Assembly: GCA_964601345.1 (NCBI GenBank)
Contig: CAZRND010000001.1
Location: 1 to 50,420, forward strand
Length of the DNA: 50,420 nt
Direction: 5' to 3'
Source: an uncultured Acidobacteriota bacterium
GTDB taxonomy: Bacteria; Acidobacteriota; Terriglobia; JAJPHL01
A model generated the notes under the pieces. That model was given only the letters and a program-made list of their open reading frames with translations, did no database searches and was not told the DNA's origin. Shown piece by piece: positions 3,941 through 40,219 of this stretch; the stretch's first letter is position 1; each line of letters begins with the position of its first letter. The translations under genes and the position numbers were made by a program.

Positions 3941-4830
3941 ACATCCTGCACATCGACCTCGGGCGGGAAATGCGCGGCGGCCAGTATCAAGCGCTGATCC
4001 TGATGCAGGCGCTCGCGGAGCGAGGTCACCGCCAGTTGCTGCTCACGGCCAAAGGTTCGCCGTTGCTCGGCGCCGCGCGCGAGGCGGGGATCGAAGCCGC
4101 GCCGAAGGGCTGGCGGATGCCCGCGGAATTTGACTTGATCCACGTGCACGACGCCAAGGCACATTCGCTCGCCGCACTCCAGTCGGGCAAGACACCGGTG
4201 GTCGTTTCGCGGCGCGTCGCATTTCCGGTGAAGCGCGGAGTGGCGTCCCGATGGAAATACGGTCGCGCCGCGCACTATATCGCAGTGTCCGATTTCGTCC
4301 GCGGCCAGTTGGCGCGAGCCGGCGTTCCGTCTCGGAAGATCACGGTGATCTACGATGGCGTGCGGATGCCGAAGGCAATCCGAAAGCAGTCGCACGGTAA
4401 GTTCGTTGCCGGAGCGATCGCCGCGCCGTCGGAGAAGCCGGTGCGCATCTTTCTTGAGGCAGCGGCCGCCCGCCCGTCGATCGAAGGGCGCGTTGGCGAC
4501 GCCGCTGAAATCCAGAACTTTGACGTGCTCGTCTATCTTTCGAGCTCTGAAGGCCTGGGCTCGGGCATCCTCCTGGCGATGGCCCACGGGATTCCGGTGA
4601 TCGCCAGCAACGTCGGCGGCATCCCCGAGATCGTCGCTCACGAGAAGACCGGGCTGCTGGTCGAAAACACCGTGGATGCGGTCGGCCGCGCGCTCGATCG
4701 CCTCGCGGCCGATCGCGCTCTCTGCCGTACGATGGGAGCCGCGGGCCGCGATTGGGTGGCGTCGAACGCCACCGACGAGATCCTCGCCGCGCGTACCGAA
4801 GCCGTATACCGAAAGATACTGGGATCGTGA
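3937..4830 (+). CDS. GT-B glycosyltransferase (family 4/1-like), short form
   Basis: 4-nt overlap with the GT2 gene. C-terminal SSSEGLGSGILLAMAHGIPVIASNVGGIPEIV matches the E-x7-E region of GT4 enzymes. Confidence 0.7.
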   Translation: MNILHIDLGREMRGGQYQALILMQALAERGHRQLLLTAKGSPLLGAAREAGIEAAPKGWRMPAEFDLIHVHDAKAHSLAALQSGKTPVVVSRRVAFPVKRGVASRWKYGRAAHYIAVSDFVRGQLARAGVPSRKITVIYDGVRMPKAIRKQSHGKFVAGAIAAPSEKPVRIFLEAAAARPSIEGRVGDAAEIQNFDVLVYLSSSEGLGSGILLAMAHGIPVIASNVGGIPEIVAHEKTGLLVENTVDAVGRALDRLAADRALCRTMGAAGRDWVASNATDEILAARTEAVYRKILGS

Positions 4831-4834
4831 AGAA

Positions 4835-5761
4835 TTGTTTTATTCTGAGTGGGTGCCCGCCATCGCTGCCTTCCTCCTGGGCTTGATCATCGGCAGTTTT
4901 CAGAACGTTTGCATCTGCCGCCTCCCGAAGGACGAGTCCGTGGTGACGCCGCGCTCGCGCTGCCCGAAGTGCGGCCACTGGATCGCGTGGTATGAAAACA
5001 TTCCGCTGTTGAGTTATCTCGTCCTAAGAGGAAAGTGCAGCGGCTGCGGCGTCCGCATCTCGCCGCAGTATTTCTTTATCGAGCTCCTCTGCGGGCTGCT
5101 CTTCGCCTTCATCGCCGTGGAATTCGCGAGTCCGGCGATGCAGATCAAGTTCATGCTGATGGTCACGCTGCTCCTGCCGCTGGCGATCATCGACTTCGTC
5201 CATCGCATCCTGCCCGACGAGCTGACGCTGACCGGCTTCGTCATGGGCCTCGTCTTCAGCCTGCTCGTTCCGGTGGATGACGGCAGCGCCTGGCTCATCA
5301 CTCACGGCTGGCTTTCCTTGCCCGTCCCCGTCTTATCTCTGCTCGACGCGCTGCTCGGCGCGGCTTTCGGCGCGGGACTTCTTTACGGCATCGGCGAGCT
5401 GTGGCTGGCGTGGCGCGGGATTCACGCCATGGGCTTCGGCGACGTGAAGCTGATGGCGTTCGTCGGCGCATTTCTCGGGACCAAGCTTACGCTGCTGACA
5501 ATCTTTCTCGGGTCGCTGGGAGGCAGCGTCCTGAGTTTGCCGCTGTGGATCTACTTCCTCTTGCGAAGGGTTGGGCACGAAGCGCGCAGCAAGAGGACGC
5601 GGACCAGCCGCGAAAGATTCGAGCGCATTATTCCGGGCACGTTTCGGTTTACTATGTCCGCGTTCCGGTTGCAGTTCGGTACGGTGCTTTCCGTCACCGC
5701 GCTCGTCGCCGGAATCTGGGGGAAGGAGATGCTCGGTTGGTACTTGGGCTTATTGTACTGA
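4835..5761 (+). CDS. Prepilin peptidase (A24 family; type IV pilin / pseudopilin leader peptidase-methylase)
   Basis: Cys box CRLP...CPKCGHWIAWYENIPLLSYLVLRGKCSGCG, catalytic Asp regions IDFVHRILPDE and GFGDVKLMAFVG, polytopic membrane protein. The start is uncertain: TTG 4835 or GTG 4853. The track ORF from 4676 overlaps the GT gene. Confidence 0.8.
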   Translation: MFYSEWVPAIAAFLLGLIIGSFQNVCICRLPKDESVVTPRSRCPKCGHWIAWYENIPLLSYLVLRGKCSGCGVRISPQYFFIELLCGLLFAFIAVEFASPAMQIKFMLMVTLLLPLAIIDFVHRILPDELTLTGFVMGLVFSLLVPVDDGSAWLITHGWLSLPVPVLSLLDALLGAAFGAGLLYGIGELWLAWRGIHAMGFGDVKLMAFVGAFLGTKLTLLTIFLGSLGGSVLSLPLWIYFLLRRVGHEARSKRTRTSRERFERIIPGTFRFTMSAFRLQFGTVLSVTALVAGIWGKEMLGWYLGLLY

Positions 5762-5814
5762 TTCAACTTTCGCAGAAGGCCGCCGAGGACATCGCCCCGA
5801 CGTTCTACAAGGCC

Positions 5815-7110
5815 ATGGGGCTGCTGACCCTTCTGCTTTTCATCCTTGTGGGTGGAATTTTCCTGATCTATCGAACGTTTCGACAGGCGGCTCGCGACGC
5901 CGGCGGTCTGAAGGAGAAAGTTCCGCGCACCGATAATCCTGCCTTCGTGATGGCCACGTTTCAGGGAGTCATCAAGCAGATGCGCGAGCAGGAGAAGGAA
6001 CTCGAACGCCTGCACCAGCTCGAGCGGCAGCGCGCCGAGGAGAGCCAGCAGCTCGCGGCCACCATCATGAGGAACATGGCCACGGGACTGGTCATGCTGA
6101 ATTCCCGCGGCATCATTACCGAGTGCAATCCGGCCGCCAAGATCGTGCTGGGACATCAACTACTCGTGGGACGCAGCTATCGCGAGACGTTTTGGCCCGA
6201 TTACCACGCGGGCGGAACCGAGCCACCTCCCCCGGGCATGCTGAGCTTGGAAGATTGCCTGAAAACGGGCAGCACGGTGCGCCGCATGCAGATGACGTAT
6301 CGCGCCCCCAACTCCCAGAACATGGTCCTGGGAATCGGCTTCTCGCCCATCCGCGCGGCCGACGGGACCATTGGAGGCGCCATCCTCTTGCTGACCGACC
6401 TCACGGAAATCACCGCGCTCCAGCAGGAAGTGCGCCTCAAGGAACACATGGCGGCGCTCGGCGAGATGGCCGCCGGCATCGCTCACGAGTTCAAGAACTC
6501 GCTCGCGACCATCTCGGGCTACAGCCAGTTGCTCGAAAGCGCCACGCTCGAAGAGACGCATGTCTTCGCGGCGAAGATCGTCAGCGAGACGCAGTTCCTG
6601 GCCAAGATCGTCAACGAGTTTTTGAATTTCTCGCGGCCTCTGAGCCTGGTGGCCGCGCAGGTGGACACCCGCCGGCTCGTGGAAGACAGCTTCGCGGAGA
6701 TCCACGACCGCGGAAAATTCCCCGGCGTGACGCTCGAGATGACCGGCGAGTTCCCCACCATCCAGGCCGACGCCACCCTGCTGCGCCAAGCCTTTTCAAA
6801 CCTGCTGCGCAACGGATGCGAAGCCATCGGCGACAAGAAGGCGGGCCGCCTGCTCGTGCAGTCGCACCTCGAACAGGAAGACGGCCGGCAGATGGTGAAA
6901 ATGAATTTTCAGGACGAGGGCGGAGGAATCGAGGCGGGCAATCTCGACAAGGTTTTCATCCCGTTCTTTACGACGAAGAACTCCGGAACCGGCCTGGGGC
7001 TGCCGCTGGTCCACAAGATCGTGGTCAATCACAATGGAAAGATCGCCGTGGAGAATGTTCCAGGAATGGGCGCGAGTTTCACGGTGACGCTGCCGCTTAC
7101 GACCGGCTGA
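5815..7110 (+). CDS. Membrane-anchored PAS sensor histidine kinase (NtrB/AtoS-like H-box)
   Basis: ATG 5815 precedes the TM helix MGLLTLLLFILVGGIFLIY. It has a PAS-like segment (MATGLVMLNSRGIITECNPAA), H-box HEFKNSLATISGYSQLL and ATPase G-boxes (DEGGGI, GTGLGLPLV). Confidence 0.8.
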   Translation: MGLLTLLLFILVGGIFLIYRTFRQAARDAGGLKEKVPRTDNPAFVMATFQGVIKQMREQEKELERLHQLERQRAEESQQLAATIMRNMATGLVMLNSRGIITECNPAAKIVLGHQLLVGRSYRETFWPDYHAGGTEPPPPGMLSLEDCLKTGSTVRRMQMTYRAPNSQNMVLGIGFSPIRAADGTIGGAILLLTDLTEITALQQEVRLKEHMAALGEMAAGIAHEFKNSLATISGYSQLLESATLEETHVFAAKIVSETQFLAKIVNEFLNFSRPLSLVAAQVDTRRLVEDSFAEIHDRGKFPGVTLEMTGEFPTIQADATLLRQAFSNLLRNGCEAIGDKKAGRLLVQSHLEQEDGRQMVKMNFQDEGGGIEAGNLDKVFIPFFTTKNSGTGLGLPLVHKIVVNHNGKIAVENVPGMGASFTVTLPLTTG

Positions 7111-9432: not shown

Positions 9433-12400
9433 ATGACTTGCATCCGTTTTGCTTTTGTGTGCCTTCTTCTGGCTGCTGTTTCCGCCGGCGCGCAGACATC
9501 GGCGGGCGAAGTGAACGGCACCGTTTCCGATCCCAGCAAATCGGCGGTCGCCGGCGCACAGGTGACGCTCGTGAACACGGTCACCAGGCTGGAGAATCGC
9601 GCCACGACCAATGCCGACGGCTATTACGTCTTTGTGAACGTCGCGCCCGGCGCCTATTCCCTGAAGATCGAGAACACCGGATTCAAAGGCGCCCAGCTTC
9701 CCACGTTCACGGTCGGCGTCAACCAGACCGTCACGCAGGATGTCTCGCTCCAACTCGGCCAGGTCTCGGAAACCGTGAACGTCAGCGCCGAAGCGGAGCT
9801 GATCCAGAAATCTTCGGCCGAGCTTGGCACCGTGATCCAGGAGAAAGCCGTCGAAGATCTGCCGCTCAACGGACGCAATTTCACCCAACTCCTCAGCCTC
9901 ACGCCGGGCGCCACTCCTGTCAACACGGCTCAGGGCGGAGGCGTGTCGTTTCAGGACGCCGGGCCGAGCGGCATTCCGGGATCGAACATCACCAAGCCCT
10001 CGATCCATGGACAGCAAAATCGCTCGCTGCTTTATTTCATGGACGGATTCATCAACACCGACCTGCGCGGGCCGATCTACGGCATCCTGCCGATCGTCGA
10101 CTCCATCCAGGAATTCAAGGTGCAAGGACACAATGACAAGGCCGAGTATGGCGGCGTGACCGGAGGCATCGTCAACGTCGTGTCTCGGTCGGGCGGTAAC
10201 GATTACCACGGATCGGGCTGGCAGTATCTGCGCAACAATTTCTTCGATGCTCGCAATCCGTTTGTGGATATCACTCCGGGACTTGGACCGGCGGCGTTCC
10301 GTCAGAACCAGTACGGCGCCACCATCGGCGGCCCGATCAAGCATCAGAAGACTTTCTGGTTCGGCGCCTGGGAAGGATGGCGCTACACCAAGCCGACGCA
10401 GACGCTCGACCTGGTGGCCACGCCCGCGGAGTTGAACGGCGACTTCACGAATTCCGTGTCCAAGAATCAGATTTACAACCCATACTCCACGCGGAAAAAT
10501 CCGGCGAACACCGCGCAGATCATTCGCGATCCCTTTGTGTGCGATCCGAGCGGAAATCCGGTGACGCCGCTGGCGGACGGAACGCAGGTCGGCGGGACGG
10601 CTTGCAACAAGATCCCGACGTCGTTGATCTCGGCGCCCATGCAGTCTCTGCTCAAGACCTATTTCGCGCCGTCGAACTTCCCGCTGACCGCCTCGCAGAA
10701 TTACATCGAGAACCGGCCCACCATCGACAACGCCAATAGCTGGCAGGTGAAGGTAGACCACCGCTTCAACGATTCCAACAACGTCTTCTTCCGCTTCAGC
10801 CAGATTCTCGACCATCACCTCGACACCCTGGCCGCTACGCTCGCGGACCGCCCGTCGGACTATCACGGCAACAACTACGGCGGCGGATGGACGCGCGTCA
10901 TGGGCGCGCATCTCATCCTCGACGTCCGCGCCGGCATTTTGCAAAAGCCCTACGTCTTCAACCAGACGCACAGCGCGAAGGGCATCGAGCCGTTGAAATC
11001 CGCCGGATTCCAGAACATCGACAAGTACGGCGGATTAAACGTCACCGTCGGAAGCCCCTGGACCGGGAACGAGCTCGGCAATCGCGGCGACTCGATCCGC
11101 AGAAATCCGGACTGGAGCGGCTCGGCGAACCTGAACTGGATCCACGGCCGCCACAATTTCCGCATGGGCTATCAGTACATTTACGTCGGGCGCGATCAGA
11201 TCAATACGTTCCAGCTCTTCGGATACAACGGAACGATCACCAACAATCCGGTGTCCACGGCGAATACGGGCCTCTCGCTGGCCTCGGCGCTGCTCGGATT
11301 CCCGGCGTCATCTTCCGGCGAGCTTCCCGACGGCGGCGAGGTGAATTTCCATCTCGGAACGTGGTCCATCTACGGTCAGGACGAATGGAAAGTCAGCCGC
11401 AAGGTCACGTTGAACCTGGGCCTGCGGTGGGACGTGCTGACGCAGCCGCACGTGAATAATTCGCGGCTCTTCAACGCGCTCGATCTTTTCGCCGGCAAGT
11501 GGATCATCGGAGCGAGCGCGTCCGAAATTCCGGCGTGCAACACGTCGAACACGAACCCATGTTTCCCCGGCGCGGGACTCTCCTCGGTCCCCTTTAACGA
11601 TCACATTGTTTTCGCCGGCAGCCGCGCGTTCAATCCGCCACCGGTCTACGACAACATCGGCCCGCGCTTCGGACTCGCCTGGGAAGCGACGCACAACACG
11701 GTGGTACGCATCGGCTACGGCTTGTACTACGACGCGCTGCCCGCTCGCAGCCAGTATGCCCAGAACGATCTCGAAGCCGGGCAGTGGCCGTGGGTGCGCG
11801 CATTCTCCGGCAGTCCCAACAGCGTGGTGGGCGCGGCCCTGGTGCCGATCACCGCCGTAGCGGGACAACTCTCGCAAGGCGTCCCGGCCAGCCCGTGGAA
11901 CAGCCTGCAATCGACTTTCTTCGACGATCCGCACTACAAGGACGGATGGTCACAGCAATATTCAGTCGAGATCCAGCGGCAGATGTCGTCGAGCACGGTC
12001 TTCTCCGTCGCCTACGTGGGCAGCGTCAATGGACGCCTGCCTTACACCGGACGGGCCAACGGCGCGAACAAGCCCTTTGCGCAAGGGACGCCGGCCACCA
12101 CCGTCGACACGCTGCGGGCCATGCCCTTCATGACCTCGGCCTTCAAATACACGCAGAACATCGGCGAGGGAAACTACAACTCCTTCCAGACGAAGTTGCA
12201 GCGCCGCTTCAACCGCGGGCTGATGACTTTGATTTCCTACACGTGGTCGAAGTCGCTGGACAATAGCAGCGGCTACTTCGACGTGGAGAATGGCGCGGGC
12301 CAGGGCGGCGCGACCGTGTCCGACTACTTCAACCCCGGCTTGAACCGCGGCCCGTCGGGCTACGACATCCCGCACTTCTTCTCCTGGTACACCGTCTACC

Positions 12401-18029: not shown

Positions 18030-19361
18030 TTGCTGGGAGGGCCTCTTACGAACGAACATCGCAAACGACTGCCGGTGTGGCGCCTGCTGTTCCTCGCCCC
18101 CGTGGGACTGGCGATCATCATTCCGGCGACTTGGGTCCTCGTCAGTTGGACGGCGAAGCCTCTTTTTCCAAAGCCGGAGGACGTGCCGACCGCCATGCAT
18201 TCGGCGCCTCCCGCCCCGTGGGCCGGAACGGTGGACCAGGCGCGGCAGATCGTCCGCGCGAGTGTCGCCGGGAAAAATCTGCCGGGCCTTTCGGTGGCGG
18301 TCGGTATCAACGGGAATATTGTTTGGGCAGAAGGCTTCGGGCTCGCGGATCTCCCCTCCAACGTGACGGTCACGCCGGATCACCGGTTCAGGACCGGAAC
18401 CGCTTCCACGGTGCTCACTTCGGCGGCGGCCGGCCTGCTGCTGCAGCAGGGCCGGCTGAAACTCGGCGACGAAATTCAAACCTACGTGCCCGCGTTTCCC
18501 AAGAAGCAGTGGCCTGTAACGCTGCGCGACGTGATGGGGCATACGTCCGGTGTCGTCGGCTACGACCGCGACCGCGGACCGATTTTCAACCAGCACTGCG
18601 AGCGGTTGGCGGATGCGCTCCAGTACTTCGCGGGAGACGCTCTGGTGTCCAAGCCCGGCACGCAATTTCGCTTTTCCAGCTCCAACTGGATTTTGGTGAG
18701 CGCGGCGGTCGAAGCCGCCGCGGGCCAGCCGTTCCTGACGTTCATGCGGGAGAAGATCTTCGAGCCATTGGGCATGCGCGACACCGTCCCCGAGCCCGCG
18801 CCGAACCGCGAGGGAGAAGACTTCCCGGGCTTCATTGCTATCCGCGAGCTGATCTACGATCCGGGGGCGATTCGCGGCAGCGGCGAGGACACCACGCGGA
18901 AGCCCGGGCCGGACCAGGCCTCGCCCTACTTCACGAGATTCAGATCGAATCCGACGTACGGCTGGCACACGGCGCGCCTGCTCGACAATACCTGCTACGG
19001 CGGAGCGAGCGTATTCCTCTCCACGCCGTCTGATTTGGTGCGCTTCGCGATGGCGATGAATAGCGGCAAGCTGCTCGAGCCCGCGACCGTCGCCTTGCTG
19101 CAGACTTCGCAGCGGCTGGCATCCGGAGAGGATACCGGCTACGGTCTTGGCTGGAAAGTGAAGACGGTTTCGCTGGCCGGAAAACCCACGCGCATGGTCG
19201 GCCACGACGGCGATTCACTGGGTGGAATGGTGGCGTCGCTGATGACCTTTCCAGATTACGCGATGGCGGTGGCAGTCACGTCGAATATCTCTTTTGCGGA
19301 TACAGCTTCGATTGCGGAGCGAGTCGCGCAAACGTTCGCCGCGCAGGCGAGGGGGAGATAG
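18030..19361 (+). CDS. Beta-lactamase-fold (class C / serine hydrolase family) protein with degenerate catalytic motifs
   Basis: Family hallmarks: LPGLSVAVGINGNIVWAEGFG, MGHTSGV, YGLGW and GHDGDSLGG. However, the expected SxxK reads TAST/STVL and the expected YxN reads SSN. Start uncertain (TTG 18030 or GTG 18075). Confidence 0.7.
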   Translation: MLGGPLTNEHRKRLPVWRLLFLAPVGLAIIIPATWVLVSWTAKPLFPKPEDVPTAMHSAPPAPWAGTVDQARQIVRASVAGKNLPGLSVAVGINGNIVWAEGFGLADLPSNVTVTPDHRFRTGTASTVLTSAAAGLLLQQGRLKLGDEIQTYVPAFPKKQWPVTLRDVMGHTSGVVGYDRDRGPIFNQHCERLADALQYFAGDALVSKPGTQFRFSSSNWILVSAAVEAAAGQPFLTFMREKIFEPLGMRDTVPEPAPNREGEDFPGFIAIRELIYDPGAIRGSGEDTTRKPGPDQASPYFTRFRSNPTYGWHTARLLDNTCYGGASVFLSTPSDLVRFAMAMNSGKLLEPATVALLQTSQRLASGEDTGYGLGWKVKTVSLAGKPTRMVGHDGDSLGGMVASLMTFPDYAMAVAVTSNISFADTASIAERVAQTFAAQARGR

Positions 19362-19873
19362 GTGCTTTGCGATGAACGCAGTCCTGCTGTAGACTTCTAG
19401 AGTGGATGCTGAGGGCTCTGGATGCTTCCTATGGCTACAATTTCGACTACTGCGAGTGCGGTCGGTTTTTGCCCAGAACGCTAGGAGCGTGGTAGGTGGC
19501 AGACTTTATCTACATCGACAACTCCAACCTATTCATAGAGGGCAAGAGAGTCAGCGCAGTCGTCCGCGGTCTCGCCATGAACATCTACGAGGCTATGAAC
19601 AACCGCATAATCGACCATGACTACAAATTGAGCTTCGGTCGCTTACATGAGTTCATCGCCGGTAGTGTCAAGTCCCAAATTGCGAGAGCGGTCTTGTTCG
19701 GCTCACGTCCTCCTCCGGACGATAGTATCTGGACTTTCGCCAAACGCGCAGGATTCGAGCTGGTGCTTGAAGACCGTAACGTTGCGAATAAAGAAAAAAA
19801 GATCGACACGGGTATAGTCGCAGCCATGACGAGGGATGCTTACAAGAAGGCCGATCCCGCGAACGATACGATG

Positions 19874-19878
19874 GTACT
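19874..19878. repeat. Target-site duplication GTACT (left copy)
   Basis: An identical pentamer directly abuts both IS ends. Confidence 0.7.
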
Positions 19879-19905
19879 TGTAGTGCACCCCTCTAAAACT
19901 GGACA
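19879..19905 (+). repeat. IS left inverted repeat
   Basis: TGTAGTGCACCCCTCTAAAACTGGACA, against the reverse complement of the right end TGTAGTGCACCCCGTTAAACTAGACA. Confidence 0.8.
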
Positions 19906-19946
19906 GTTCATTCTAGTATGATCGGGGCCTCCAAACAGGAGGCAGG

Positions 19947-20231
19947 ATGAGCAGGAAAGCAGCGCTTCAGAGAAGTCCGGAACTGAAACTACAGATCGTA
20001 ATGGAAGGGTTGCGGAGCGGCAACATCGCGGAGACTTGCCGCAAGCACGAGATCGCAGCGAATCTCTATTACCGCTGGAAGGACGAGGTGGAGAAGGGCG
20101 CGCTGGAAGCCTTGGGCGGCAAGCGTGGCGTCGCCGATTCCGAAAAGGATCAGCGGATTAGACAGTTGGAGCGCACGCTAGGCCGCAAGAGTCTGGAGAT
20201 CGAGATCCTAAAAAACGTTCTGGGGGACTGA
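19947..20231 (+). CDS. IS3-family transposase OrfA (HTH_Tnp_1-like)
   Basis: 94 aa. ...IAETCRKHEIAANLYYRWKDE... followed by a leucine-zipper-like tail LERTLGRKSLEIEILKNVL. GGAGG SD upstream. Confidence 0.85.
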   Translation: MSRKAALQRSPELKLQIVMEGLRSGNIAETCRKHEIAANLYYRWKDEVEKGALEALGGKRGVADSEKDQRIRQLERTLGRKSLEIEILKNVLGD

Positions 20232-20252
20232 GCTGTGGCGCAACTCACTCCC
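20210..20252 (+). promoter_or_regulatory. Programmed -1 ribosomal frameshift signal of the IS (slippery A AAA AAC plus downstream stem-loop)
   Basis: Heptamer A AAA AAC lies at 20210-20216 in the orfA frame (cta aaa aac). The -1 frame is open from here into orfB. After a 7-nt spacer there is a stem GGGACTGAG (20224-20232) / CTCACTCCC (20244-20252), 8 of 9 bp, enclosing the orfA stop. Confidence 0.55.
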
Positions 20253-20326
20253 AAGCTCGTGCGCTGGTCGAAAACGGCTATCGACCTACCGTCGTCGCCG
20301 AAGCTCTGCAGATCAGCCGCTCCAGC

Positions 20327-21103
20327 TTGTATTACCGCAAGCAGGAGCGCAGCAGTCGCGCCGATCGATCCTTCGATGACCGCATCATCGAGGCCTGCGG
20401 CGAGAAACCGGCTTACGGCTATCGCCGCGTTCAATGGTGGCTGGAACATCACCGTGGTTTGCGGCTCAATCGCAAACGTGTTCTCCGCGTCATGCAGGAA
20501 CGCGGCTTGCTCGTTCACAGCCGAAGATTGCGCGCGCGACGCCGCAAGGAATGGAGCAAAGTGATCGTCACTACGCCCAATCAAGTCTGGCAATCCGACC
20601 TGACCAAGATCTGGGCTGGCCCCAACTCCGGCTGGGCTTACCTGGTGTCGATCATCGACTGCTTCACCCGCGAGATCGTCGGCTGGGATCTTTCTTCCCG
20701 CTGCCGAACCGACGATGCCCTCAACGCTTTGAACCAGGCTGTCATCGAGCAGTTGCCTTTCGGATCGCGCGGAACTGGGCTGACCTTGACCACCGACAAC
20801 GGCACGCAGTTCACTTCTTCCCGTTTCATGGAAGTAGTTTCTTCTCTTGGCATTTTCCATCGCCGCACCGCGTTTCATCACCCGGAAGGCAATGGCTACA
20901 TCGAACGTTTTCACCGCAGCTTGAAAGAAGAGGAGGTCTGGATCAACGAATACCAAAACCTGGATGAAGCCCGCCGTTCCATCGCCCGCTACATCCAGGA
21001 GTACAATAACGACCGGCCCCATCGGGGGCTGGGCGATCGTACGCCTCACGAGGCTCGTCAGGCGTTTACCATTGACCTAAAATCCGAGGCCCTGAATGTC
21101 TAG
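20327..21103 (+). CDS. IS3-family transposase OrfB (DDE integrase core), presumably expressed as an OrfAB fusion
   Basis: The frame is -1 relative to orfA. DDE triad candidates are WQSDLT, LTTDNGTQF and HPEGNGYIERFH, followed by YNNDRPHRGLG. The stop TAG lies inside the right inverted repeat. Confidence 0.9.
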   Translation: MYYRKQERSSRADRSFDDRIIEACGEKPAYGYRRVQWWLEHHRGLRLNRKRVLRVMQERGLLVHSRRLRARRRKEWSKVIVTTPNQVWQSDLTKIWAGPNSGWAYLVSIIDCFTREIVGWDLSSRCRTDDALNALNQAVIEQLPFGSRGTGLTLTTDNGTQFTSSRFMEVVSSLGIFHRRTAFHHPEGNGYIERFHRSLKEEEVWINEYQNLDEARRSIARYIQEYNNDRPHRGLGDRTPHEARQAFTIDLKSEALNV

Positions 21104-21122
21104 TTTAACGGGGTGCACTACA
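21097..21122 (-). repeat. IS right inverted repeat
   Basis: See the left inverted repeat. 13 of 13 outer nt are identical; the inner part is imperfect with one indel. Confidence 0.8.
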
Positions 21123-21127
21123 GTACT
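21123..21127. repeat. Target-site duplication GTACT (right copy)
   Basis: Identical to 19874-19878. Confidence 0.7.
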
Positions 21128-21446
21128 CGTCGCTGGCGATGGCGACTTCGTTCCCGCTGTCCGTCAGATCGTCGAGGACGGCTACAAGGTTGAAGTCGTC
21201 TTCTGGAATCATGCATCGAAGGAACTCAAGGAACTTAGGGGGTTAGCCAAGTTCATCTCGCTAGACGAACACCTAGAGTATCTTCGTCTCAAATAAAAAG
21301 TACGCCCGACCCAACGCGTAGGTCCTAGCGGCTCTGGCCCGTGAGCATGGATGCAGGCGGTGCATTTGAGGCTAAGCCTTCGTAGTGCCGGACTCCCCGC
21401 TAGACAGAGAGGAGAGGCGGCTATTCTTTTCTGGAAGAGAATCGGG

Positions 21447-21551
21447 GTCGGCCTGGTCTGATCCATGGTTCGAACGAACGTCATTCATACGACTGCAACG
21501 TGCCGAACCGACCGTCACCTTCAGAACATAAGGAGGGTGGGGACAGATCAG
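21447..21551. repeat. Island repeat, copy A (~105 nt, imperfect internal dyad)
   Basis: It aligns along its whole length with 23693-23798. Shared blocks: GTC.GCCTGG.CTG, GTTCG, CGTCATTCAT, CGAACCG.CC, GAACAT, AGGAGGGTGGGGACA, ATCAG. The outer arms CTGATC / GATCAG and inner arms ATG(G)TTC / GAACAT can pair. Confidence 0.75.
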
Positions 21552-21739
21552 TCGTGACGCGTTTTTTTCGATGGCACACCACTCTCATTTCGGCCGCCGA
21601 AGACCATTCGGGCGAGTTCGTCGCCCAACCGGCCGGCGACCTCCGGATCACGCTCGTTCCGGAAGCGCTTGGCTAGGGTAAGGAACTGCTGCTGCTTTCG
21701 CTTCTCCGCGGCGATTTCCTTCTTGCTCACGCCCTTCAT
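21548..21739 (-). CDS. Small basic hypothetical protein (63 aa)
   Basis: MKGVSKKEIAAEKRKQQQFLTLAKRFRNERDPEVAGRLGDELARMVFGGRNESGVPSKKTRHD. It looks helical and charged, has no SD, and its stop codon is the conserved CTGAT edge of repeat A. The GTG-extended 115-aa version looks non-coding. Confidence 0.4.
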   Translation of the reverse strand: MKGVSKKEIAAEKRKQQQFLTLAKRFRNERDPEVAGRLGDELARMVFGGRNESGVPSKKTRHD

Positions 21740-21745
21740 AGCGCG

Positions 21746-21751
21746 ATTATG
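21746..21751 (-). promoter_or_regulatory. -10-like hexamer CATAAT exactly 6 nt upstream of the small-ORF ATG (possible leaderless transcript)
   Basis: The minus strand reads CATAAT CGCGCT ATG. There is no SD, and only a weak -35 (TTCGCC at 17 nt). Confidence 0.25.
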
Positions 21752-21814
21752 CACCGGAACAATTCGAAGGCGAATTAGAAAAAAGGAATCGATTCTCTGG
21801 CAGCGGAGCTGCTT

Positions 21815-21843
21815 CTCTAAGGTGCCACTTTGGCACCTTAGAG
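21815..21843. repeat. Perfect 13-bp inverted repeat / hairpin with 3-nt loop
   Basis: CTCTAAGGTGCCA ctt TGGCACCTTAGAG. It lies in the 316-nt spacer between the 516-aa gene and the small ORF. No adjacent U-tract on either strand. Confidence 0.7.
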
Positions 21844-22055
21844 GAGTGCAGAGGCCAGTAGAGAACTGTCGAGGAAGCCATGCGTCAGAGCGCACTGCGC
21901 TTATTCAGGACCTGCCGCACGTTAATGAAACCGCTCTGGTTCGGCTGTCGGATCACCAAGAGCTAGAATTGAATAATGCGCTCCGACACCCGCTAGCCCC
22001 TGCAATGCAAACGAGGAACCCCATAGCAGGACCGGGCTACTGCTTCTTTCTAGGA

Positions 22056-23606
22056 TTAATGGCTCCTCGGTTCCTGTTCCTGCAAATGGCTCAACCGCCA
22101 ATTGCGGCTCTTGAGCAGCCGCATGAAATAGGCGTCGCAAAACAGCTTCATGAATGAGGCTTCTTTGAGCGTCACCACGGCACCTTCGACGTTCTTTGAT
22201 TCGAAGCGCCCGCAGAGATCGGCAAACTGATCACGTTCGTCCATCTTGGGAAACATCTCGTCAAGGAAACGTAACATTGAATCCCGGAAACTCATGCCTT
22301 CCTTCCAATCGCCGTTCTCGGCCATTAGCGCTCTTAGGCATTCGAAGAAGTTTCCAAATACCATGCTTTCGCACTGCCAGTGAATATCGTTCAACGACAG
22401 CAACGTAAGCCCGCCAGCGTAATAGTTGAACGCTGTGTGCTGGTCGCTCTTATCCGGACCCGGCAGCGCTGCGAAGCACGCAGCGACACGGTTGAGGTCT
22501 TCCGCCGTTAGCACGCGGTTCTCGCCCCAGTCAACTTTGAGGACAGGAATTCGATCCAAGACGAGACCCATGCCTTTTTCAAGATCATGGAGGCTGTCGT
22601 AGTAGCGACTGATTTGCTCAGGCATTCGCCACCACCAAAAGCCCATCGTTCCGATATTTAGCGCGACGACGAAGTGGCGGGCGAGGCCCCAGCCGAAGTT
22701 CCAGAGCCCCTCGACAGGAACGTTGTCCTTAAGAATAAGTTCGACGATAAGTTCGTTCTTCTTCGCAACCTTCAGTCCGATCCCTTTGACGCTCATGTTC
22801 CACTGCGTAAGTTCTTTTCCTCGCAAGGAATGAGATGCGCTGATGATCCGTATGCGCAGCCGCCATTTCTCACTCTTGCCTTCAGTTGGGAGGTTGCGAC
22901 TCCTGCGCAGTTCCGCTTCGGCGGCGGTGCGGGATTCGGCGTCCGCATTGTCGAACTGCTGTCTCAGCCACGTTACCCACGCCGTTGAGCTGTGCAGTTC
23001 AGCAAGCTTGGCCATCGAGCCCCCAGAGAAGATCATCCGTCTTTTTTCCGGGTCTTCGGTTGACCTAAGAAACCAGCTTTGTAGGTCGACTTCCTTCTCC
23101 GGAATTTGATCGCGGAGCTTCTGGGCCTCCGCCATACCTAGGCGCATTGCGGCTAGTTCGATCAGTTTGCTGCACTGCTCCGCTGTGATGGCCTCCTCGG
23201 GAATGGTCAGACCGTCTTCGTCATTCTGGACATAAAGACCCGCCAGCCTCGTCGAATGAATGGACGTCGCCATGCCTGTGAGTTCCTCAAGGGCTTGTCC
23301 TGTCAAGGGCTGATAACCGAAAATCCCGCCAAAGAAACACCAGAAAAGTTTCTTAATGTGATCTTGTGTATGCTTGGCGGGCCATGCCGGCCCGTCGGGG
23401 CGCTTCGAGGCGAGACACTGGACTGCAATCAACTCCCGGCGCCCAATCTCTTCGAGCGCGAGCGCAGCAAGATGATATGCCACATTCGGGTGATTAGCGG
23501 CCTGAACCGCGCGCGCGGAATCCAACAAAGCGTGGGCATGGTCGATGCAGGCCTTCATCGCCGCAATCGTATTGTCGTCAATCCGGCGCTCTCCATTCGT
23601 AGCCAT
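22056..23606 (-). CDS. 516-aa protein: N-terminal AbiV-like (HEPN-superfamily) domain fused to an unassigned C-terminal half
   Basis: This is a long ORF in the lower-GC region. The N-terminus ...CIDHAHALLDSARAVQAANHPNVAYHLAALALEEIGRRE..., then KHTQDHIKKL and STRLAGLYVQ, resembles the AbiV family pattern (helix pair, EE(I/L)GK, H..K, R..LYV) as I recall it. Residues ~245-516 matched nothing I recognise. Confidence 0.5.
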   Translation of the reverse strand: MATNGERRIDDNTIAAMKACIDHAHALLDSARAVQAANHPNVAYHLAALALEEIGRRELIAVQCLASKRPDGPAWPAKHTQDHIKKLFWCFFGGIFGYQPLTGQALEELTGMATSIHSTRLAGLYVQNDEDGLTIPEEAITAEQCSKLIELAAMRLGMAEAQKLRDQIPEKEVDLQSWFLRSTEDPEKRRMIFSGGSMAKLAELHSSTAWVTWLRQQFDNADAESRTAAEAELRRSRNLPTEGKSEKWRLRIRIISASHSLRGKELTQWNMSVKGIGLKVAKKNELIVELILKDNVPVEGLWNFGWGLARHFVVALNIGTMGFWWWRMPEQISRYYDSLHDLEKGMGLVLDRIPVLKVDWGENRVLTAEDLNRVAACFAALPGPDKSDQHTAFNYYAGGLTLLSLNDIHWQCESMVFGNFFECLRALMAENGDWKEGMSFRDSMLRFLDEMFPKMDERDQFADLCGRFESKNVEGAVVTLKEASFMKLFCDAYFMRLLKSRNWRLSHLQEQEPRSH

Positions 23607-23612
23607 GGTCGT

Positions 23613-23618
23613 AATCTA
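23613..23618 (-). promoter_or_regulatory. -10-like hexamer TAGATT exactly 6 nt upstream of the 516-aa gene ATG (possible leaderless transcript)
   Basis: The minus strand reads TAGATT ACGACC ATG. There is no SD and no convincing -35. Confidence 0.2.
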
Positions 23619-23692
23619 CCATTGGGGAATACGCAACCGGAACAGGCAACCCGGTTCAGCCTGACCTCGCCCTAGCTTCCTAGAAACTCGGT

Positions 23693-23798
23693 GTCAGCCT
23701 GGCCTGTCCCCCTTGTTCGGACGGGCGTCATTCATGCCGTTTGGCGAACCGGCCCGCTAGCTTAGCTTCCGAACATCCAGGAGGGTGGGGACAATCAG
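23693..23798. repeat. Island repeat, copy B (~106 nt, imperfect internal dyad)
   Basis: Same orientation as copy A. The arms CCTG..CTGTCCCC.TTGTTCGGA and TTCCGAACA...GGGGACA..CAGG can pair. It begins (minus sense) at the stop codon of the 448-aa gene and fills much of the gap to the 516-aa gene. Confidence 0.75.
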
Positions 23799-25141
23799 GC
23801 TGGCCCTTGTTTCCCTTGTTCCTTGCTTGCCGTTTCAGCTTCTGGTGGAGGACCCGTTAGAAGCGGAATACGGTGGTACCGGTAACGATCCATGTCTTTC
23901 AGCGCGGCGCGAACCCGATCCCTCGTTTTCGCCGAACGCCAGAGGCGAGACACCGTTGACCCAAACATCACGAGCCCTCCCATGATGCTGGCGGCGGTAC
24001 CCACCACATTGGCCCCTGGCGCGAGACTGGACAGGACTATCCCAAAGCAAGCTGCTGCGAAGCCAACACTTGTCGCTAGCTTCTCGATGCAGGCGACCAT
24101 TGCTCGCGGGCTCTTCGGGTTAGCGGCGGCGAATCCGTCCAGCGACGCCGTCCACGCCTCGACGAGCTTGGCATCGTCGACTGTCTCTTCGTTGGCTATC
24201 CTTGACCGAACCGCCGCAATCACAGTGCCGACACCCTTGCACAAGACGATCTTGCCGATTTTCCTAGTTCCAAGTGGGGTCCACAAGCCCGGAGGTTCCT
24301 CGTCGCTTGTTTCGCGAAGTGGAGGCTCGGGCAAGAAGGGGGTGAACACTCCCTCTGCCCGCTCAGCGTCACTGTAAACAGCTGCAAACACCGACTGCGC
24401 CAGTTTGCGAACCTCTCCCTCAATTGCCCCAAATTTCTTTGTTTGCGCCAATTGGTACACGCGCGACCGAGGTGACTCAATCGACCCAATGATCTTTTTG
24501 CCTTCATCCCGTATGGATGCGGCCGCCTTCTCGGGGTCGGCAGCCAGTTCGCTAAATTCCACAAGTAGGCCGGGGCTGCTGAAGTCAAAGTCGTTCGCGG
24601 ATTGCGTGCTCGCACATATGTGGCACGCTTCCAGAAATTCCTTGGCGAACAACTGTGGAATTTGGGCAGACCAAGCTTGTTCTCGTCGGGCCACAGAGTT
24701 TCTGTCCAGGAGTTCGTCGAGTTTCTTATGAAACGTCAGGAAAGGCTCTGTGTCTGGATCAAAAGGTCGTCCCTGATAGCTGCTTTGCCTCTTCACGTGC
24801 AAGGCCCGGGCTCGGATCGGCTGCTTACGCGACTTCTCGCCCAATTCGTTGTCCGGGTAGTTCTCGGGGCGCTGAGTATTGATCCTGACACCGCCAGTGG
24901 AGCAGATTTCCTCCAGTAGATCGAACCAGTGCGGATTCCTTAGCAACGCCTTCGCGAGGGGACGATTTACTGCGATGTGCTGGTCGGGTATCAGAACTTC
25001 CTTGTATCTCATCGACGCTGCAATAAGCTGAATTAATATGACCTCAGCGGGCAAAGCCTCATAAACTTGCGGATCCCAGTGAGTAAGGACGACCTTGCGC
25101 CGTCCGGATCCAGCTGAAGAACTTGTCGGTCTTGTGTCCAT
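23795..25141 (-). CDS. 448-aa hypothetical protein with a C-terminal two-helix, Gly/Ala-rich membrane hairpin
   Basis: Long ORF, with GAGG ~10 nt upstream of the ATG. Residues ~355-396 (nt 23954-24079) read LATSVGFAAACFGIVLSSLAPGANVVGTAASIMGGLVMFGSTV, followed by a basic tail. No family recognised for the ~350-aa N-terminal part. Confidence 0.6.
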   Translation of the reverse strand: MDTRPTSSSAGSGRRKVVLTHWDPQVYEALPAEVILIQLIAASMRYKEVLIPDQHIAVNRPLAKALLRNPHWFDLLEEICSTGGVRINTQRPENYPDNELGEKSRKQPIRARALHVKRQSSYQGRPFDPDTEPFLTFHKKLDELLDRNSVARREQAWSAQIPQLFAKEFLEACHICASTQSANDFDFSSPGLLVEFSELAADPEKAAASIRDEGKKIIGSIESPRSRVYQLAQTKKFGAIEGEVRKLAQSVFAAVYSDAERAEGVFTPFLPEPPLRETSDEEPPGLWTPLGTRKIGKIVLCKGVGTVIAAVRSRIANEETVDDAKLVEAWTASLDGFAAANPKSPRAMVACIEKLATSVGFAAACFGIVLSSLAPGANVVGTAASIMGGLVMFGSTVSRLWRSAKTRDRVRAALKDMDRYRYHRIPLLTGPPPEAETASKEQGKQGPA

Positions 25142-25163
25142 TTGTTCAGAACCTCTACCGAGA

Positions 25164-25192
25164 AATATTAAGCCCTTCTGTTGAATTGTCTA
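25164..25192 (-). promoter_or_regulatory. Possible sigma-70 promoter of the 448-aa gene
   Basis: The minus strand reads TAGACA, 17 nt, AATATT. It lies ~22 nt upstream of the ATG at 25141. Confidence 0.3.
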
Positions 25193-25267
25193 CACTGAGT
25201 TTTAGGAGCGCTTGGATAGAATGTGATTTGCGAGAAACAGTTGCCGGGCTGACTAACCCTCGCCGGA

Positions 25268-26338
25268 CTACGGTTTCTTCTCTTCCGGAGTGTCGAACGT
25301 GATCTTGGATTCGGCGCTGAACTTGCGATAGAGGCGGAACTCGATTTCGTTTTTCGTCGTCAGGCGGCCTTCGGCCATCAGCACCGTCGCTCGCTTCGGC
25401 AGCAGAAAAATGATCCCGGATATGTCCACGAACTCGTACTCCAGCGTCGTGTCCGCCATGTTCACCGGGAAATCGCGCGGGATGTCGATCGCCGTCATCG
25501 TCAGCTTCAGCACCTGCGCGGACTCGCGGTCCACCCACACGCGCCCCCGGTAGGCCGGGATGATCGTTTCCTTCTTGTTGTAGGTGATGTGCCACTGCGA
25601 GTGAATCTGCTGCACGCCGTACACGTAAACTTCCGCCGCGCGACCGTTGATCGCCGCCTGCTTCGACCACGCAAACTTCGTTTCCGTGGCCGGCTCGAAA
25701 ATCCCGAGCAGCAACGACCCGAACTCGCCCGTGCTCACCGCTCCGTTCAGCGCGTCGTAGCTCTTATCCACAAGCTGGTTGTTGACGGTGTTGATCTGGT
25801 AGCTCTCGCCCTTGCCGCGCTCATAACTCAGCCGCGCCTGGATCGTGTCGAGAAGACGCCACGAGCCTCGTCCAGTCGGATCGGCATGACGCTTGGTCTG
25901 CTGCACGCAAATGAAGCTCGGCAGATTCGCGGTGTAGGACAGCGCGCGGTTGCGGGCGCGCTCGAGCAACTCGTCCTGACCCGCCACATTGAGCGGCGGC
26001 GGCAGCGGGATCTGCTTCTCCGGCTCCGGAATCGACGTGGCCGCGGCCAGCGACGGCGGCGCCTTCTGACGCGTCTCGGACGCCTTGGCGAGCGCCGCGA
26101 GCACGCCATCGGTGGCGCCTGCTTTCTTGAACGAGCGGCGCAGCGGTTCGGTCAGCCGGAAATCGACGCCGCGCTTCTGCACCTGTTCGATGATGTTCGC
26201 TTCCCCGATCGTCTGGATGTAGCGCAGTTGCAGGTAGAGCTGGTCTTCGGTGAACGGAGGACCAACGGTCTCCTTCGGCAGTTCCTGCGCCAGCAGAGAC
26301 AACGCCGCCACCGCAGCGAGCAGGGTAAGGAACCTCAT
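25268..26338 (-). CDS. Secreted hypothetical protein (356 aa)
   Basis: Signal peptide MRFLTLLAAVAALSLLAQ. High-GC codon usage like the flanking core genes. No family recognised. Confidence 0.6.
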   Translation of the reverse strand: MRFLTLLAAVAALSLLAQELPKETVGPPFTEDQLYLQLRYIQTIGEANIIEQVQKRGVDFRLTEPLRRSFKKAGATDGVLAALAKASETRQKAPPSLAAATSIPEPEKQIPLPPPLNVAGQDELLERARNRALSYTANLPSFICVQQTKRHADPTGRGSWRLLDTIQARLSYERGKGESYQINTVNNQLVDKSYDALNGAVSTGEFGSLLLGIFEPATETKFAWSKQAAINGRAAEVYVYGVQQIHSQWHITYNKKETIIPAYRGRVWVDRESAQVLKLTMTAIDIPRDFPVNMADTTLEYEFVDISGIIFLLPKRATVLMAEGRLTTKNEIEFRLYRKFSAESKITFDTPEEKKP

Positions 26339-38659: not shown

Positions 38660-39149
38660 GCCAGGCGCTTTCGAAGATCCTCTGGGCGGACTCTTCGTAA
38701 AGGACGAAGATCACCCGCTCGAGCGAAGTCTGCTCGTGCATGTGCTCGTGCACCGCGGCCAGCATGGCCGAAGCGCACTCCTCCATGTCGAGGCCGCCGA
38801 ATCCGCTGCCGATCGCGGGAAAGGCGACGCTCGTCAGTCCCTTTTCGCGCGCCAGCTTCAGCGAGTTCTTCGTGGCGTGGTGGCAGTTGTCGCGGCTGAC
38901 TCCGCCGCCCATGTGCATGCCCGCGGCGTGGATGACGAAACGGGCCGGCAGATTGCCGCCGCCGGAAATTGTCGCGTGGCCGAGCCGGATGGGTCCCAGA
39001 TGGTCGCACTCCTCCTGAATCGACGGGCCGCCGACGCGGCGGATGGCTCCTGCGACTCCCGCTCCCAGCAGCAAGTCGGTGTTCGCGGCGTTCACGATCG
39101 CATCCACCTGCGCGCGGGTTATGTCGCCGGTCTCGAACGTGACTTGCAT
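38634..39149 (-). CDS. Macro-domain protein (ADP-ribose / O-acetyl-ADP-ribose hydrolase-like)
   Basis: GDITRAQVDAIVNAANTDLLLGAGVAGAI...FVIHAAGMH...SVAFPAIGSGFGG are canonical macro-domain motifs. Confidence 0.85.
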   Translation of the reverse strand: MQVTFETGDITRAQVDAIVNAANTDLLLGAGVAGAIRRVGGPSIQEECDHLGPIRLGHATISGGGNLPARFVIHAAGMHMGGGVSRDNCHHATKNSLKLAREKGLTSVAFPAIGSGFGGLDMEECASAMLAAVHEHMHEQTSLERVIFVLYEESAQRIFESAWHELIRKRP

Positions 39150-39158
39150 TCTATGAGG

Positions 39159-40190
39159 CTAACACAGGCAGGCAACGACACCGAATACCAGGAAGAAACC
39201 TCCATATCCGGAGTACTCGAGGTCGAGCGCGCGGCTCTGAAGACTCGAGAGCATGATCCCGGTCACGACGAAGAACGCCTGCACGACCGCGCACGAGGCA
39301 AAGAGGGCGACTCTCCGCCACGCCAGCACGATGCTCAACAGCGCTCCGAGTCCGGCCAGGACAAATCCTGCGTAGGGAATGATGTCGTTAAACCGGCTGA
39401 GACGGTTAGCGCCCTCGAGCGGCGCAAATCCGGCCGGATCGTAGAAGTAAAACGGCAACGTGACGGCCAGGAATACCGCGGTTGACACTCCCAGATCGCG
39501 AATCGCCCGTCGCATTCCAAAGTGTTGCTGCAAGTAGCCGAACGCTAGAGGCGCAAGCAGCAGGAAATTGGGCCTGGATGACAGCGCCAGTCCGAACAAA
39601 ATCGCGCCGCCGATTCCATTGCGCGTCATCCACCACAGCGCGATGAATACGTAGATCCCGTTTACGAGGGCATCAGCGCCGGTGACGACCTGTTGCATCA
39701 CCATCGGGCAAAGAATGCCCACGGCCCAAAGAGCAGGAAGCCCGCGACGGTATCCAAAGGTTTTTCCGAAGACCAAAAAGAACAGCCCGATCCAGAACAA
39801 GCCCTGGTACGCGCTGTTTCCGAGCAGCACGAAGGGCGTGGCCAGGAACAGCGAGCCCGGCAATGCATGCATCAGATTTCCGAGGTAGGTCTTCGCGTAA
39901 TAAGGATAGCGGCCGTGCAGCATTTCGCGCACCGCCGCGTTGTAGGCATCGTCGGCGTCGCTGCCCGCGCCGAGCGCCCCGGACTTGGCGAGAGGATAGA
40001 GAATCGCGAAGGCCAGCACGACGAGGGCAAAAGTGCAGAGCGTCAGATAGCGGGCATCTTCCTCCGCCGGTTCCCACTCGCGAGCCAGGAACAGGACCGC
40101 CGGAACAGCCGCTGCGTACACGACCAACCCGACGATCCCGAAATACTTTTGCACCTGCGCCAGGGACGGAACGACGAGGCAAACGGCCAT
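39159..40190 (-). CDS. Polytopic membrane protein, possibly a GT-C-type glycosyltransferase
   Basis: About 9-10 hydrophobic helices, with an acidic loop GSDADDAYN after TM2. Start taken at ATG 40190, because the track ORF to 40496 overlaps the amidohydrolase gene in another frame. Confidence 0.5.
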   Translation of the reverse strand: MAVCLVVPSLAQVQKYFGIVGLVVYAAAVPAVLFLAREWEPAEEDARYLTLCTFALVVLAFAILYPLAKSGALGAGSDADDAYNAAVREMLHGRYPYYAKTYLGNLMHALPGSLFLATPFVLLGNSAYQGLFWIGLFFLVFGKTFGYRRGLPALWAVGILCPMVMQQVVTGADALVNGIYVFIALWWMTRNGIGGAILFGLALSSRPNFLLLAPLAFGYLQQHFGMRRAIRDLGVSTAVFLAVTLPFYFYDPAGFAPLEGANRLSRFNDIIPYAGFVLAGLGALLSIVLAWRRVALFASCAVVQAFFVVTGIMLSSLQSRALDLEYSGYGGFFLVFGVVACLC

Positions 40191-40219
40191 GCCCAGCCGC
40201 GCCCAGGGAGATGAAAACC

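Follow-up and report, generated by a model that had tools for sequence, protein, structure and literature searches.

A lower-G+C islet of an uncultured Acidobacteriota bacterium with a long AbiV variant and a gene of an unnamed protein family

We analysed a 50,420-nt stretch of DNA from an uncultured Acidobacteriota bacterium (assembly GCA_964601345.1, contig CAZRND010000001.1, positions 1 to 50,420; hereafter the window). A 5.9-kb segment of it carries a gene for a 516-aa protein of AbiV type (AbiV-long), a gene for a 448-aa protein of an unnamed family, a 63-aa open reading frame (ORF) and a NYN-domain gene split by an insertion sequence (IS) (Table 1). We consider it probable that this segment is a small acquired islet of defence type made up of independent single-gene modules, and not one system.

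We compared 12 other distinct full-length places of AbiV-long (L001-L014), which lie in Terriglobia, Bryobacterales, Alphaproteobacteria and Verrucomicrobia, and nine other loci of the 448-aa family. None of the 12 encoded a relative of the 448-aa, 63-aa or NYN proteins, and no ORF within 4 kb was common to any two of them. Similarly, AbiV-long was missing from the nine loci of the 448-aa family, and no ORF lying within 5 kb recurred from one locus to another. Since the genes do not co-occur and neither family has a conserved neighbour, the islet is best explained as a mosaic of solo modules. A first-pass annotation of this DNA had proposed a single RNase/membrane-protein locus; this is contradicted by the other loci compared, in none of which relatives of the 448-aa and 516-aa genes occur together, an outcome that the annotation itself had named as refuting. 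Judging from motifs upstream, each gene also appears to have its own promoter. Adjacency within a low-G+C islet does not make a system, and this tempting over-reading is corrected by the comparison. The islet is an ordinary small defence islet with a long AbiV variant. The novelty of the islet and of AbiV-long is modest, while the 448-aa family is the best lead and the part that is worth an experiment.

Composition and content of the islet

The islet lies between a gene for a beta-lactamase-fold protein (18030-19361, plus strand) and a gene for a secreted 356-aa protein (25268-26338, minus strand). We observed that the G+C content of 1-kb windows inside it had a mean of 0.563 (range 0.532-0.598), against 0.633 (sd 0.018) outside, where no window came down to the inside mean. 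The change in composition is abrupt, and of all 5.9-kb windows in the 50 kb the one beginning at position 19351 is the lowest in G+C; the islet minus its IS has a G+C content of 0.55 as compared to 0.63 in each flank. The G+C content at third codon positions (GC3) was 0.61-0.66 in the NYN, 516-aa and 448-aa genes, 0.73 in the 63-aa ORF and 0.74-0.87 in the flank genes. The intergenic spacers of the islet measure 134, 251, 316, 188 and 126 nt, whereas the flank genes overlap or abut. These measurements support the lower-GC island and the long spacers (126-316 nt) that the first-pass annotation had reported. Its hand counts of 60-nt lines also held inside the islet (0.45, 0.48, 0.57 and 0.50); outside, where 62-68% had been given, one line agreed (0.62) and line 18241 lay just above (0.70).

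By their predicted functions, the flanks are ordinary chromosomal or housekeeping DNA. They encode the beta-lactamase-fold protein, a CHASE2 histidine kinase, a sigma-54 activator, ABC transporters, TonB-type outer-membrane barrels, LpxB, an aromatic amino acid lyase, a molybdopterin oxidoreductase and others. No transposase or integrase was seen among the 20 large flank ORFs scanned, neither a tRNA gene nor an Rfam family was found in the 50-kb window, and no integrase or att sites were left at the islet. Of the marks of a genomic island, we saw atypical composition and an IS element. We found no syntenic relative of the host genome in which the islet site could be compared. The 356-aa flank protein had zero relatives in species-representative genomes and zero exact copies on record, and the closest relative of the beta-lactamase-fold gene, in a Bryobacteraceae metagenome-assembled genome (MAG; L015), was 57% identical and showed no synteny. 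The islet is compositionally foreign, and we infer that it was horizontally acquired.

The mobile element that had been noticed in the islet proved to be an intact IS3-family element. It has the orfA/orfB arrangement, the terminal inverted repeats of the form TG...CA and the target duplication of 3-5 bp that belong to this family, and orfB scored 219 bits against the IS3-family transposase model NF033516 (cut-off 160; 9e-65). When the IS and one GTACT copy were deleted in silico, a 183-aa ORF with a GDGDF acidic motif was obtained. This ORF matched the Pfam NYN domain (PF01936) with 3.7e-17 and 63.6 bits (cut-off 24.2) over positions 16-136 of the 145 in the model, and the PADLOC models NYN and HEC-09 weakly and partially (about 1e-6). 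In its domain and motif the restored protein resembles the NYN/LabA-like proteins with a PIN-like RNase fold; unlike them, the islet gene is split by an IS and matches the defence-associated PADLOC NYN models only weakly. The identical IS-NYN junction recurs in L028 and L029, which are independent Logan assemblies of public runs. The split gene is presumably a pseudogene, and its inactivation would be recent, since the IS looks intact and the duplication of its target is perfect.

The islet resembles defence islands in its low G+C content relative to the host, its IS element, its nuclease-type single-gene modules, its hypothetical genes and a content that varies between genomes. Unlike defence islands, it is very small (three or four genes) and lacks an integrase, a tRNA and any anchor of restriction-modification or CRISPR type, and AbiV is its single component that matches a validated system. 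The Pfam matches agree with the earlier description of an IS-inactivated NYN gene and an AbiV/HEPN-like 516-aa protein. It had also been correctly noted that nothing in the islet is metabolic and that genes of these types are found in defence and toxin loci.

Table 1. Features of the islet, with coordinates in the window
Feature	Position	Strand	Basis or remark
Lower-GC accessory islet	19362-25267		Composition, GC3, housekeeping flanks
NYN-domain gene, 5' part, interrupted	19496-19878	+	Frame restored in silico
Target duplication GTACT, 5 bp	19874-19878 and 21123-21127		Junctions read directly
IS3-family insertion sequence, 1244 bp	19879-21122	+	Inverted repeats, junctions, domains
IS inverted repeats, 19 nt	19879-19897 and 21104-21122		Reading TGTAGTGCAC...GTGCACTACA
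IS orfA	19947-20231	+	HTH_Tnp_1 (Pfam)
IS orfB	20327-21103	+	rve/DDE (Pfam)
NYN-domain gene, 3' part	21128-21296	+	NYN frame resumes past the IS
Repeat copy A	21436-21551		Abuts and includes the stop codon of the 63-aa ORF
63-aa basic ORF, orphan	21548-21739	-	GC3 0.73; G+C at second codon positions (GC2) 0.42
Hairpin, perfect 13-bp stem and 3-nt loop	21812-21846	-	CTCTAAGGTGCCA AAG TGGCACCTTAGAG; between the AbiV-long stop and the 63-aa ORF
516-aa AbiV-long protein	22056-23606	-	Predicted N-terminal AbiV-type HEPN (about residues 5-160) and about 350 unmatched residues
Extended -10-like element TGGTAGATT	23613-23621	-	Ends 6 nt upstream of the AbiV-long ATG
Repeat copy B	23682-23798		Abuts and includes the 448-aa stop codon; lies upstream of AbiV-long
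448-aa protein, unnamed family	23795-25141	-	Alpha/beta N-terminal domain, hydrophobic hairpin, conserved C-terminal motif
Promoter-like site TAGACA-16-TAATAT	25165-25192	-	Upstream of the 448-aa gene; consensus match, site count not above shuffles

The AbiV-long protein

Residues 14-154 of the 516-aa protein matched the Pfam domain HEPN_AbiV (PF18728) with 1.1e-16 and 61.8 bits (cut-off 27.1). The protein also matched TIGR04498 AbiV_defense (3.1e-14, 53.5 bits, cut-off 27) and the PADLOC AbiV model (3e-7), and a profile of the AbiV-long family picked up the AbiV structures 9bj5 and 9bj7 from sequence in a search of the PDB. The AlphaFold model (mean predicted local distance difference test score, pLDDT, 77.5) was matched by Foldseek to the AbiV crystal structures with a probability of 1.00, the target-normalised template-modelling (TM) scores against chains of 9bj5, 9bj6 and 9bj7 being 0.45-0.55, and to further HEPN domains (1wol, 2hsb and 3o10). 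By its predicted N-terminal HEPN domain, the 516-aa protein is a genuine member of the AbiV family. The C-terminal region of about 350 residues has a beta-rich middle and a helical end, and gave zero Pfam hits and zero PDB matches. A second HEPN domain in this part was rejected, as was a domain common to the 516-aa and 448-aa proteins (hhalign probability below 2% in each case).

We found at least 241 full-length relatives of the 516-aa protein. Among 120 relatives listed, nearly all were about 500-540 aa long and a few 382-478 aa, with identities of 50-82%. The hosts include Terriglobia, Bryobacterales, Bradyrhizobium, Mesorhizobium, Pseudolabrys, Pelagibius, Rhizomicrobium and one verrucomicrobium. 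Many of these relatives are named 'AbiV family abortive infection protein' by NCBI and JGI. The statement that the gene set matches no named system does not hold for this protein, which falls in a populous family that already bears the name AbiV.

The AbiV of Lactococcus consists of a 201-aa protein (abiV1) and an RNA (abiV2). The protein is a metal-independent RNase that degrades rRNA, and the changes R91A and R91A/H97A remove this degradation; the upstream abiV2 RNA is required and also inhibits the enzyme, which binds a small hairpin in it (Zhu et al., bioRxiv 10.1101/2024.05.05.592566). Neither R91 nor H97 is strictly conserved across the AbiV family according to the same study, and an alternative conserved histidine, with a basic residue, has been described in AbiV (Anantharaman et al. 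2013, PMC3710099). When we aligned 32 AbiV-long members, E52, E53, H83 and R120, which are candidates for the active site, were invariant, while position 78 was lysine in 25 of the 32 (including the window protein) and arginine in six. In the profile alignment to lactococcal AbiV, H83 corresponds to H97, and K78 falls at or next to R91.

AbiV-long is like lactococcal AbiV (9bj5, 9bj6, 9bj7) in having the HEPN_AbiV domain in its N-terminal 160 residues, an invariant equivalent of H97 and an invariant arginine in helix 3, and in being a stand-alone chromosomal gene of patchy distribution. Unlike it, AbiV-long is 2.5 times longer through its extra C-terminal residues, usually has lysine at the R91 position, has no detectable abiV2-like upstream element and has a promoter-like motif that abuts the start codon. 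Its hosts are soil Acidobacteriota and Alphaproteobacteria, in contrast to the Firmicutes host of lactococcal AbiV.

The neighbours of AbiV-long range from housekeeping genes (L001) to genes of a conjugative element (L002). In 10 of the 12 loci the gene is poorer in G+C than the remainder of its locus, with differences of up to 13 points among Alphaproteobacteria. From these comparisons AbiV-long is a solo gene. Neither IMG/VR (pattern scan) nor PLSDB yielded it. The AbiV-long frame was split in two in the MAG contigs L008 (about 9680), L009 (about 9280) and L013 (about 10630); these may be either frameshifted pseudogenes or assembly errors.

A sequence TG(C/G)TAGATT ends 6-7 nt before the AbiV-long ATG in the window and in L001, L002, L003, L005 and L008/L009. 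The genes that carry it belong to different orders and have no Shine-Dalgarno sequence. We infer that this is an extended -10 promoter of the gene's own, with transcription starting at the start codon and yielding a leaderless mRNA. Apart from this motif, no upstream or downstream sequence or hairpin was common to the AbiV-long loci, which leaves no visible counterpart of abiV2. In L002 and L005, whose AbiV-long proteins are each 64-77% identical to that of the window, we noticed an 89-nt stretch upstream of the gene (about 9870-9960) that is 76% identical between the two and absent from the window. Within it are a 26-nt core of 92% identity and a small CCGAG...CTCGG hairpin; a local element that acts in regulation or as an RNA is conceivable.

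By analogy with the lactococcal enzyme, the HEPN domain would most likely act as a metal-independent RNase that shuts off translation in infected cells, leading to abortive infection. The C-terminal part, which is confined to the long subfamily, may regulate or sense, holding the RNase inactive until infection sets in, a role for which the abiV2 RNA of Lactococcus would be the counterpart. If this is true, AbiV-long would manage with protein alone, where the lactococcal system depends on an RNA partner. It is abundant in soil bacteria, and would then offer a natural comparison for the silencing of HEPN RNases.

The 448-aa protein and its family

An exhaustive phmmer search against 1.84 billion cluster representatives (clusters at 50% identity) gave 99 relatives of the 448-aa protein, the best being 39% identical; a word-indexed search with the single sequence or a profile returned the query alone. 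The relatives are mostly 430-490 aa long, and every member with a source name is labelled 'hypothetical protein'. The family alignment showed the conserved motifs L-T-x-W-D near the N-terminus, P-I-x-A-R-A, Q-S-[VI]-F-A-A-x-Y and L-x-E-x-P, and a C-terminal motif R-[CY]-x-x-[VI]-P-L. There were zero significant hits in Pfam, NCBIfam, PADLOC and PHROGs, and in the first three of these matches with E up to 0.1 were noise only; an IspD-like match (13 bits over 32 residues) was dismissed as such. One member, P0135 (L026 1485-3725), is 746 aa long and has an N-terminal extension of 300 residues with a thrombospondin type 3 repeat hit, which is the sole domain fusion that we saw in the family.

The AlphaFold model made with the family alignment (pLDDT 75, predicted TM score 0.74) has a confident alpha/beta domain at about residues 13-278. 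Foldseek found no match for it in the PDB (best E 0.5, TM below 0.2) or in BFVD. The hydropathy profile shows two adjacent hydrophobic segments at 347-397. The two-transmembrane (2-TM) hairpin that had been claimed for the end of this protein stands as a hydrophobic double segment; AlphaFold is not confident there (residues 344-416 are of low confidence), and only part of the family keeps the hairpin. We picture the protein as a cytoplasmic alpha/beta domain that may be tethered by this C-terminal hydrophobic hairpin, and as a putative conflict or defence protein at the membrane. If so, it would be a new fold among conflict proteins. The combination of a soluble domain, a C-terminal pair of hydrophobic helices and defence-type neighbourhoods is like that of the 2-TM SLATT-type effectors of CBASS and Pycsar. 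Unlike these, the 448-aa protein matches neither SLATT nor any Pfam or PADLOC model in sequence or fold, it has no cyclase or other signalling partner, and the hairpin is not uniform in the family. Membership in the SLATT or 2-TM effectors was rejected after the Pfam, PADLOC, NCBIfam and fold searches.

We then considered the neighbourhoods of the family. In a Dehalococcoidia MAG (L021 5095-13207) the gene lies in a compact islet with a ParB-N6 methyltransferase fusion, a TIR protein and a PIN/Phd pair; the TIR protein matches CAP12/Pycsar TIR and PADLOC PDC-S35/PycTIR, and the islet sits in a local G+C trough. L022 and L032 have a 514-aa TPR-HEPN_LA2681 protein near the gene and a weak NA-iREase1 hit. 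The gene is near a transposase, HepT/MNT, HicB and a resolvase in L031, two HNH proteins in L034, a 1024-aa PDDEXK protein in L024, and runs of small hypothetical genes with a RadC gene in L026 and L027. Its G+C content is below that of the rest of its locus in seven of eight cases. The family was absent from IMG/VR (pattern scan) and PLSDB, and we rejected carriage by phages or plasmids for both this family and AbiV-long, which also gave zero PHROG hits. These neighbourhoods suggest that this solo gene moves on its own and tends to end up beside genes of toxin-antitoxin and defence type.

Local features and alternative readings

The codon-position G+C content of the 63-aa ORF is coding-like, while that of its upstream extension to 21895 is not, and a -10-like CATAAT ends 6 nt before its ATG. 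The source annotation includes it as a gene, and its cluster is a singleton. No homologue was found in Pfam, NCBIfam, PADLOC, PHROGs, plasmids or the other AbiV-long loci, and a conserved antitoxin was ruled out because no database or locus searched gave a homologue. The hairpin at 21812-21846 has a minimum free energy of -28.7 kcal/mol (z = -4.1 against shuffled sequence). No U-tract follows it directly, and no such hairpin is present near other AbiV-long genes; it could be a terminator lacking the U-tract or an operator.

The two repeat copies are 69% identical over about 115 nt, with exact blocks of 15 nt and 10 nt (AGGAGGGTGGGGACA and CGTCATTCAT), and for both the start falls on the stop codon of a gene on the minus strand. 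They had been described as two copies of a structured repeat: the copies are real, and the structure is not borne out, as they folded no better than shuffled sequence (z-scores -0.9 to +0.9). Neither the repeat nor the hairpin had an Rfam match at the gathering score or with E up to 1. A dispersed element was rejected, as no further copy turned up in the window, nor by nhmmer in 511 kb of fetched loci. A scan with the repeat pattern gave zero hits in viral contigs and one match in 596 Gb of genomes, in a Roizmanbacteria dnaG gene (L030 4483-4551). There, both exact blocks occur at near-equal spacing in the region that encodes the CHC2 zinc finger (TPSF...QEGGD). We judged this match to be chance because it has no protein-level similarity to the repeats. 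The hairpin, the two-copy repeat and the 63-aa ORF are locus-specific features.

The gene order itself invites the view of a single integrated defence or toxin system of several genes, in which the membrane protein of 448 aa would work with AbiV-long as an RNase, with the 63-aa protein and, in the past, with the NYN RNase, as the 448-aa, 516-aa and 63-aa genes are neighbours on one strand with a common low-GC signature. The L022/L032 member of the 448-aa family, moreover, adjoins a different HEPN protein of nearly equal size and the L021 member adjoins the TIR protein, pairings that could hint at a 'family member plus exchangeable effector'. We regard such a system as very unlikely, given the lack of co-occurrence and of conserved neighbours described above, the divergent orientation of the neighbour in L021 and L022, the long spacers that each hold a promoter-like element, and the orphan status of the 63-aa ORF. 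It is somewhat less improbable, though still a long shot, that AbiV-long is restrained by an adjacent non-coding RNA, either the repeat, with one copy upstream and one downstream, or the hairpin. The need of lactococcal AbiV for abiV2 and its binding to a small hairpin there would fit this, as would the position of repeat copy B within the 188-nt region upstream of AbiV-long and the very stable hairpin downstream on the same strand. However, neither the repeat nor the hairpin lies beside other AbiV-long genes, even at 77-79% protein identity, and the poor folding of the repeats and the lack of an Rfam match also count against it. An upstream RNA would moreover have to be a separate transcript, because the conserved promoter-like motif stands directly before the AbiV-long ATG.

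The repeats could also be taken for attC-like sites, each closing a cassette of an integron-like array that has no integrase. Each starts at a gene stop codon in the same orientation, they are about 110 nt long and imperfectly similar, their 2.25-kb spacing brackets a module of AbiV-long and the 63-aa ORF, and defence genes are known from integron cassettes (bioRxiv 10.1101/2024.07.02.601686). We find this scarcely credible. The inner inverted repeat GTTCGGA...TCCGAAC, seen by inspection, has the opposite order to the attC boxes R'' (RYYYAAC) and R' (GTTRRRY) and does not match their consensus; there are just two copies, which fold no better than shuffles; no repeat copy lies beside other family members; and no integrase was seen in the ORFs scanned in the 50 kb. 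It is unlikely that the islet is the decaying cargo of an old mobile element, functionless today and with its genes on their way to loss. One of the four genes is already inactivated, the spacers are long, integrase and att sites are gone, and AbiV-long copies are frameshifted in L008, L009 and L013. On the other hand, the 516-aa and 448-aa ORFs are full length, all family-invariant residues are present in the window proteins (which are themselves the reference sequences of the alignments), and the intact IS with its perfect target duplication makes the NYN loss a recent one.

A bolder reading goes further than independent modules. In it, the 448-aa protein belongs to an undescribed single-gene defence or toxin family that acts through its C-terminal membrane hairpin and moves alone between defence islets of Acidobacteriota, Dehalococcoidia and other soil or sediment bacteria, and AbiV-long has, separately, swapped its RNA antitoxin for a covalent regulatory domain of 350 residues. 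We hold this to be possible but doubtful.

The reading that we prefer, an acquired islet of independent modules with any anti-phage effect a matter of prediction, has to face several observations that weigh against it. The case for acquisition is compositional, because no relative with an empty site was found. The 188-nt spacer is compatible with read-through co-transcription of the 448-aa and 516-aa genes. The activity of AbiV-long is not assured, because lysine replaces the arginine of the lactococcal R-x5-H motif, and to call its C-terminal region a sensor or autoinhibitor is a guess, because that region has no detectable homologue of known function. An abiV2-like RNA partner was not found, in a search that a partner conserved in structure only could escape. 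The hydrophobic peak of the 448-aa protein recurs at the equivalent place in many relatives and is absent or below threshold in some. The defence context of this family, drawn from about nine loci, is suggestive.

Elsewhere in the window, we noted strong AT-skew excursions that come with no change in G+C content, at 4501-6000 (-0.21 to -0.23) and at 39001-40500 (+0.21 to +0.22). The latter falls on a 475-aa ORF (39863-41290) without a Pfam match.

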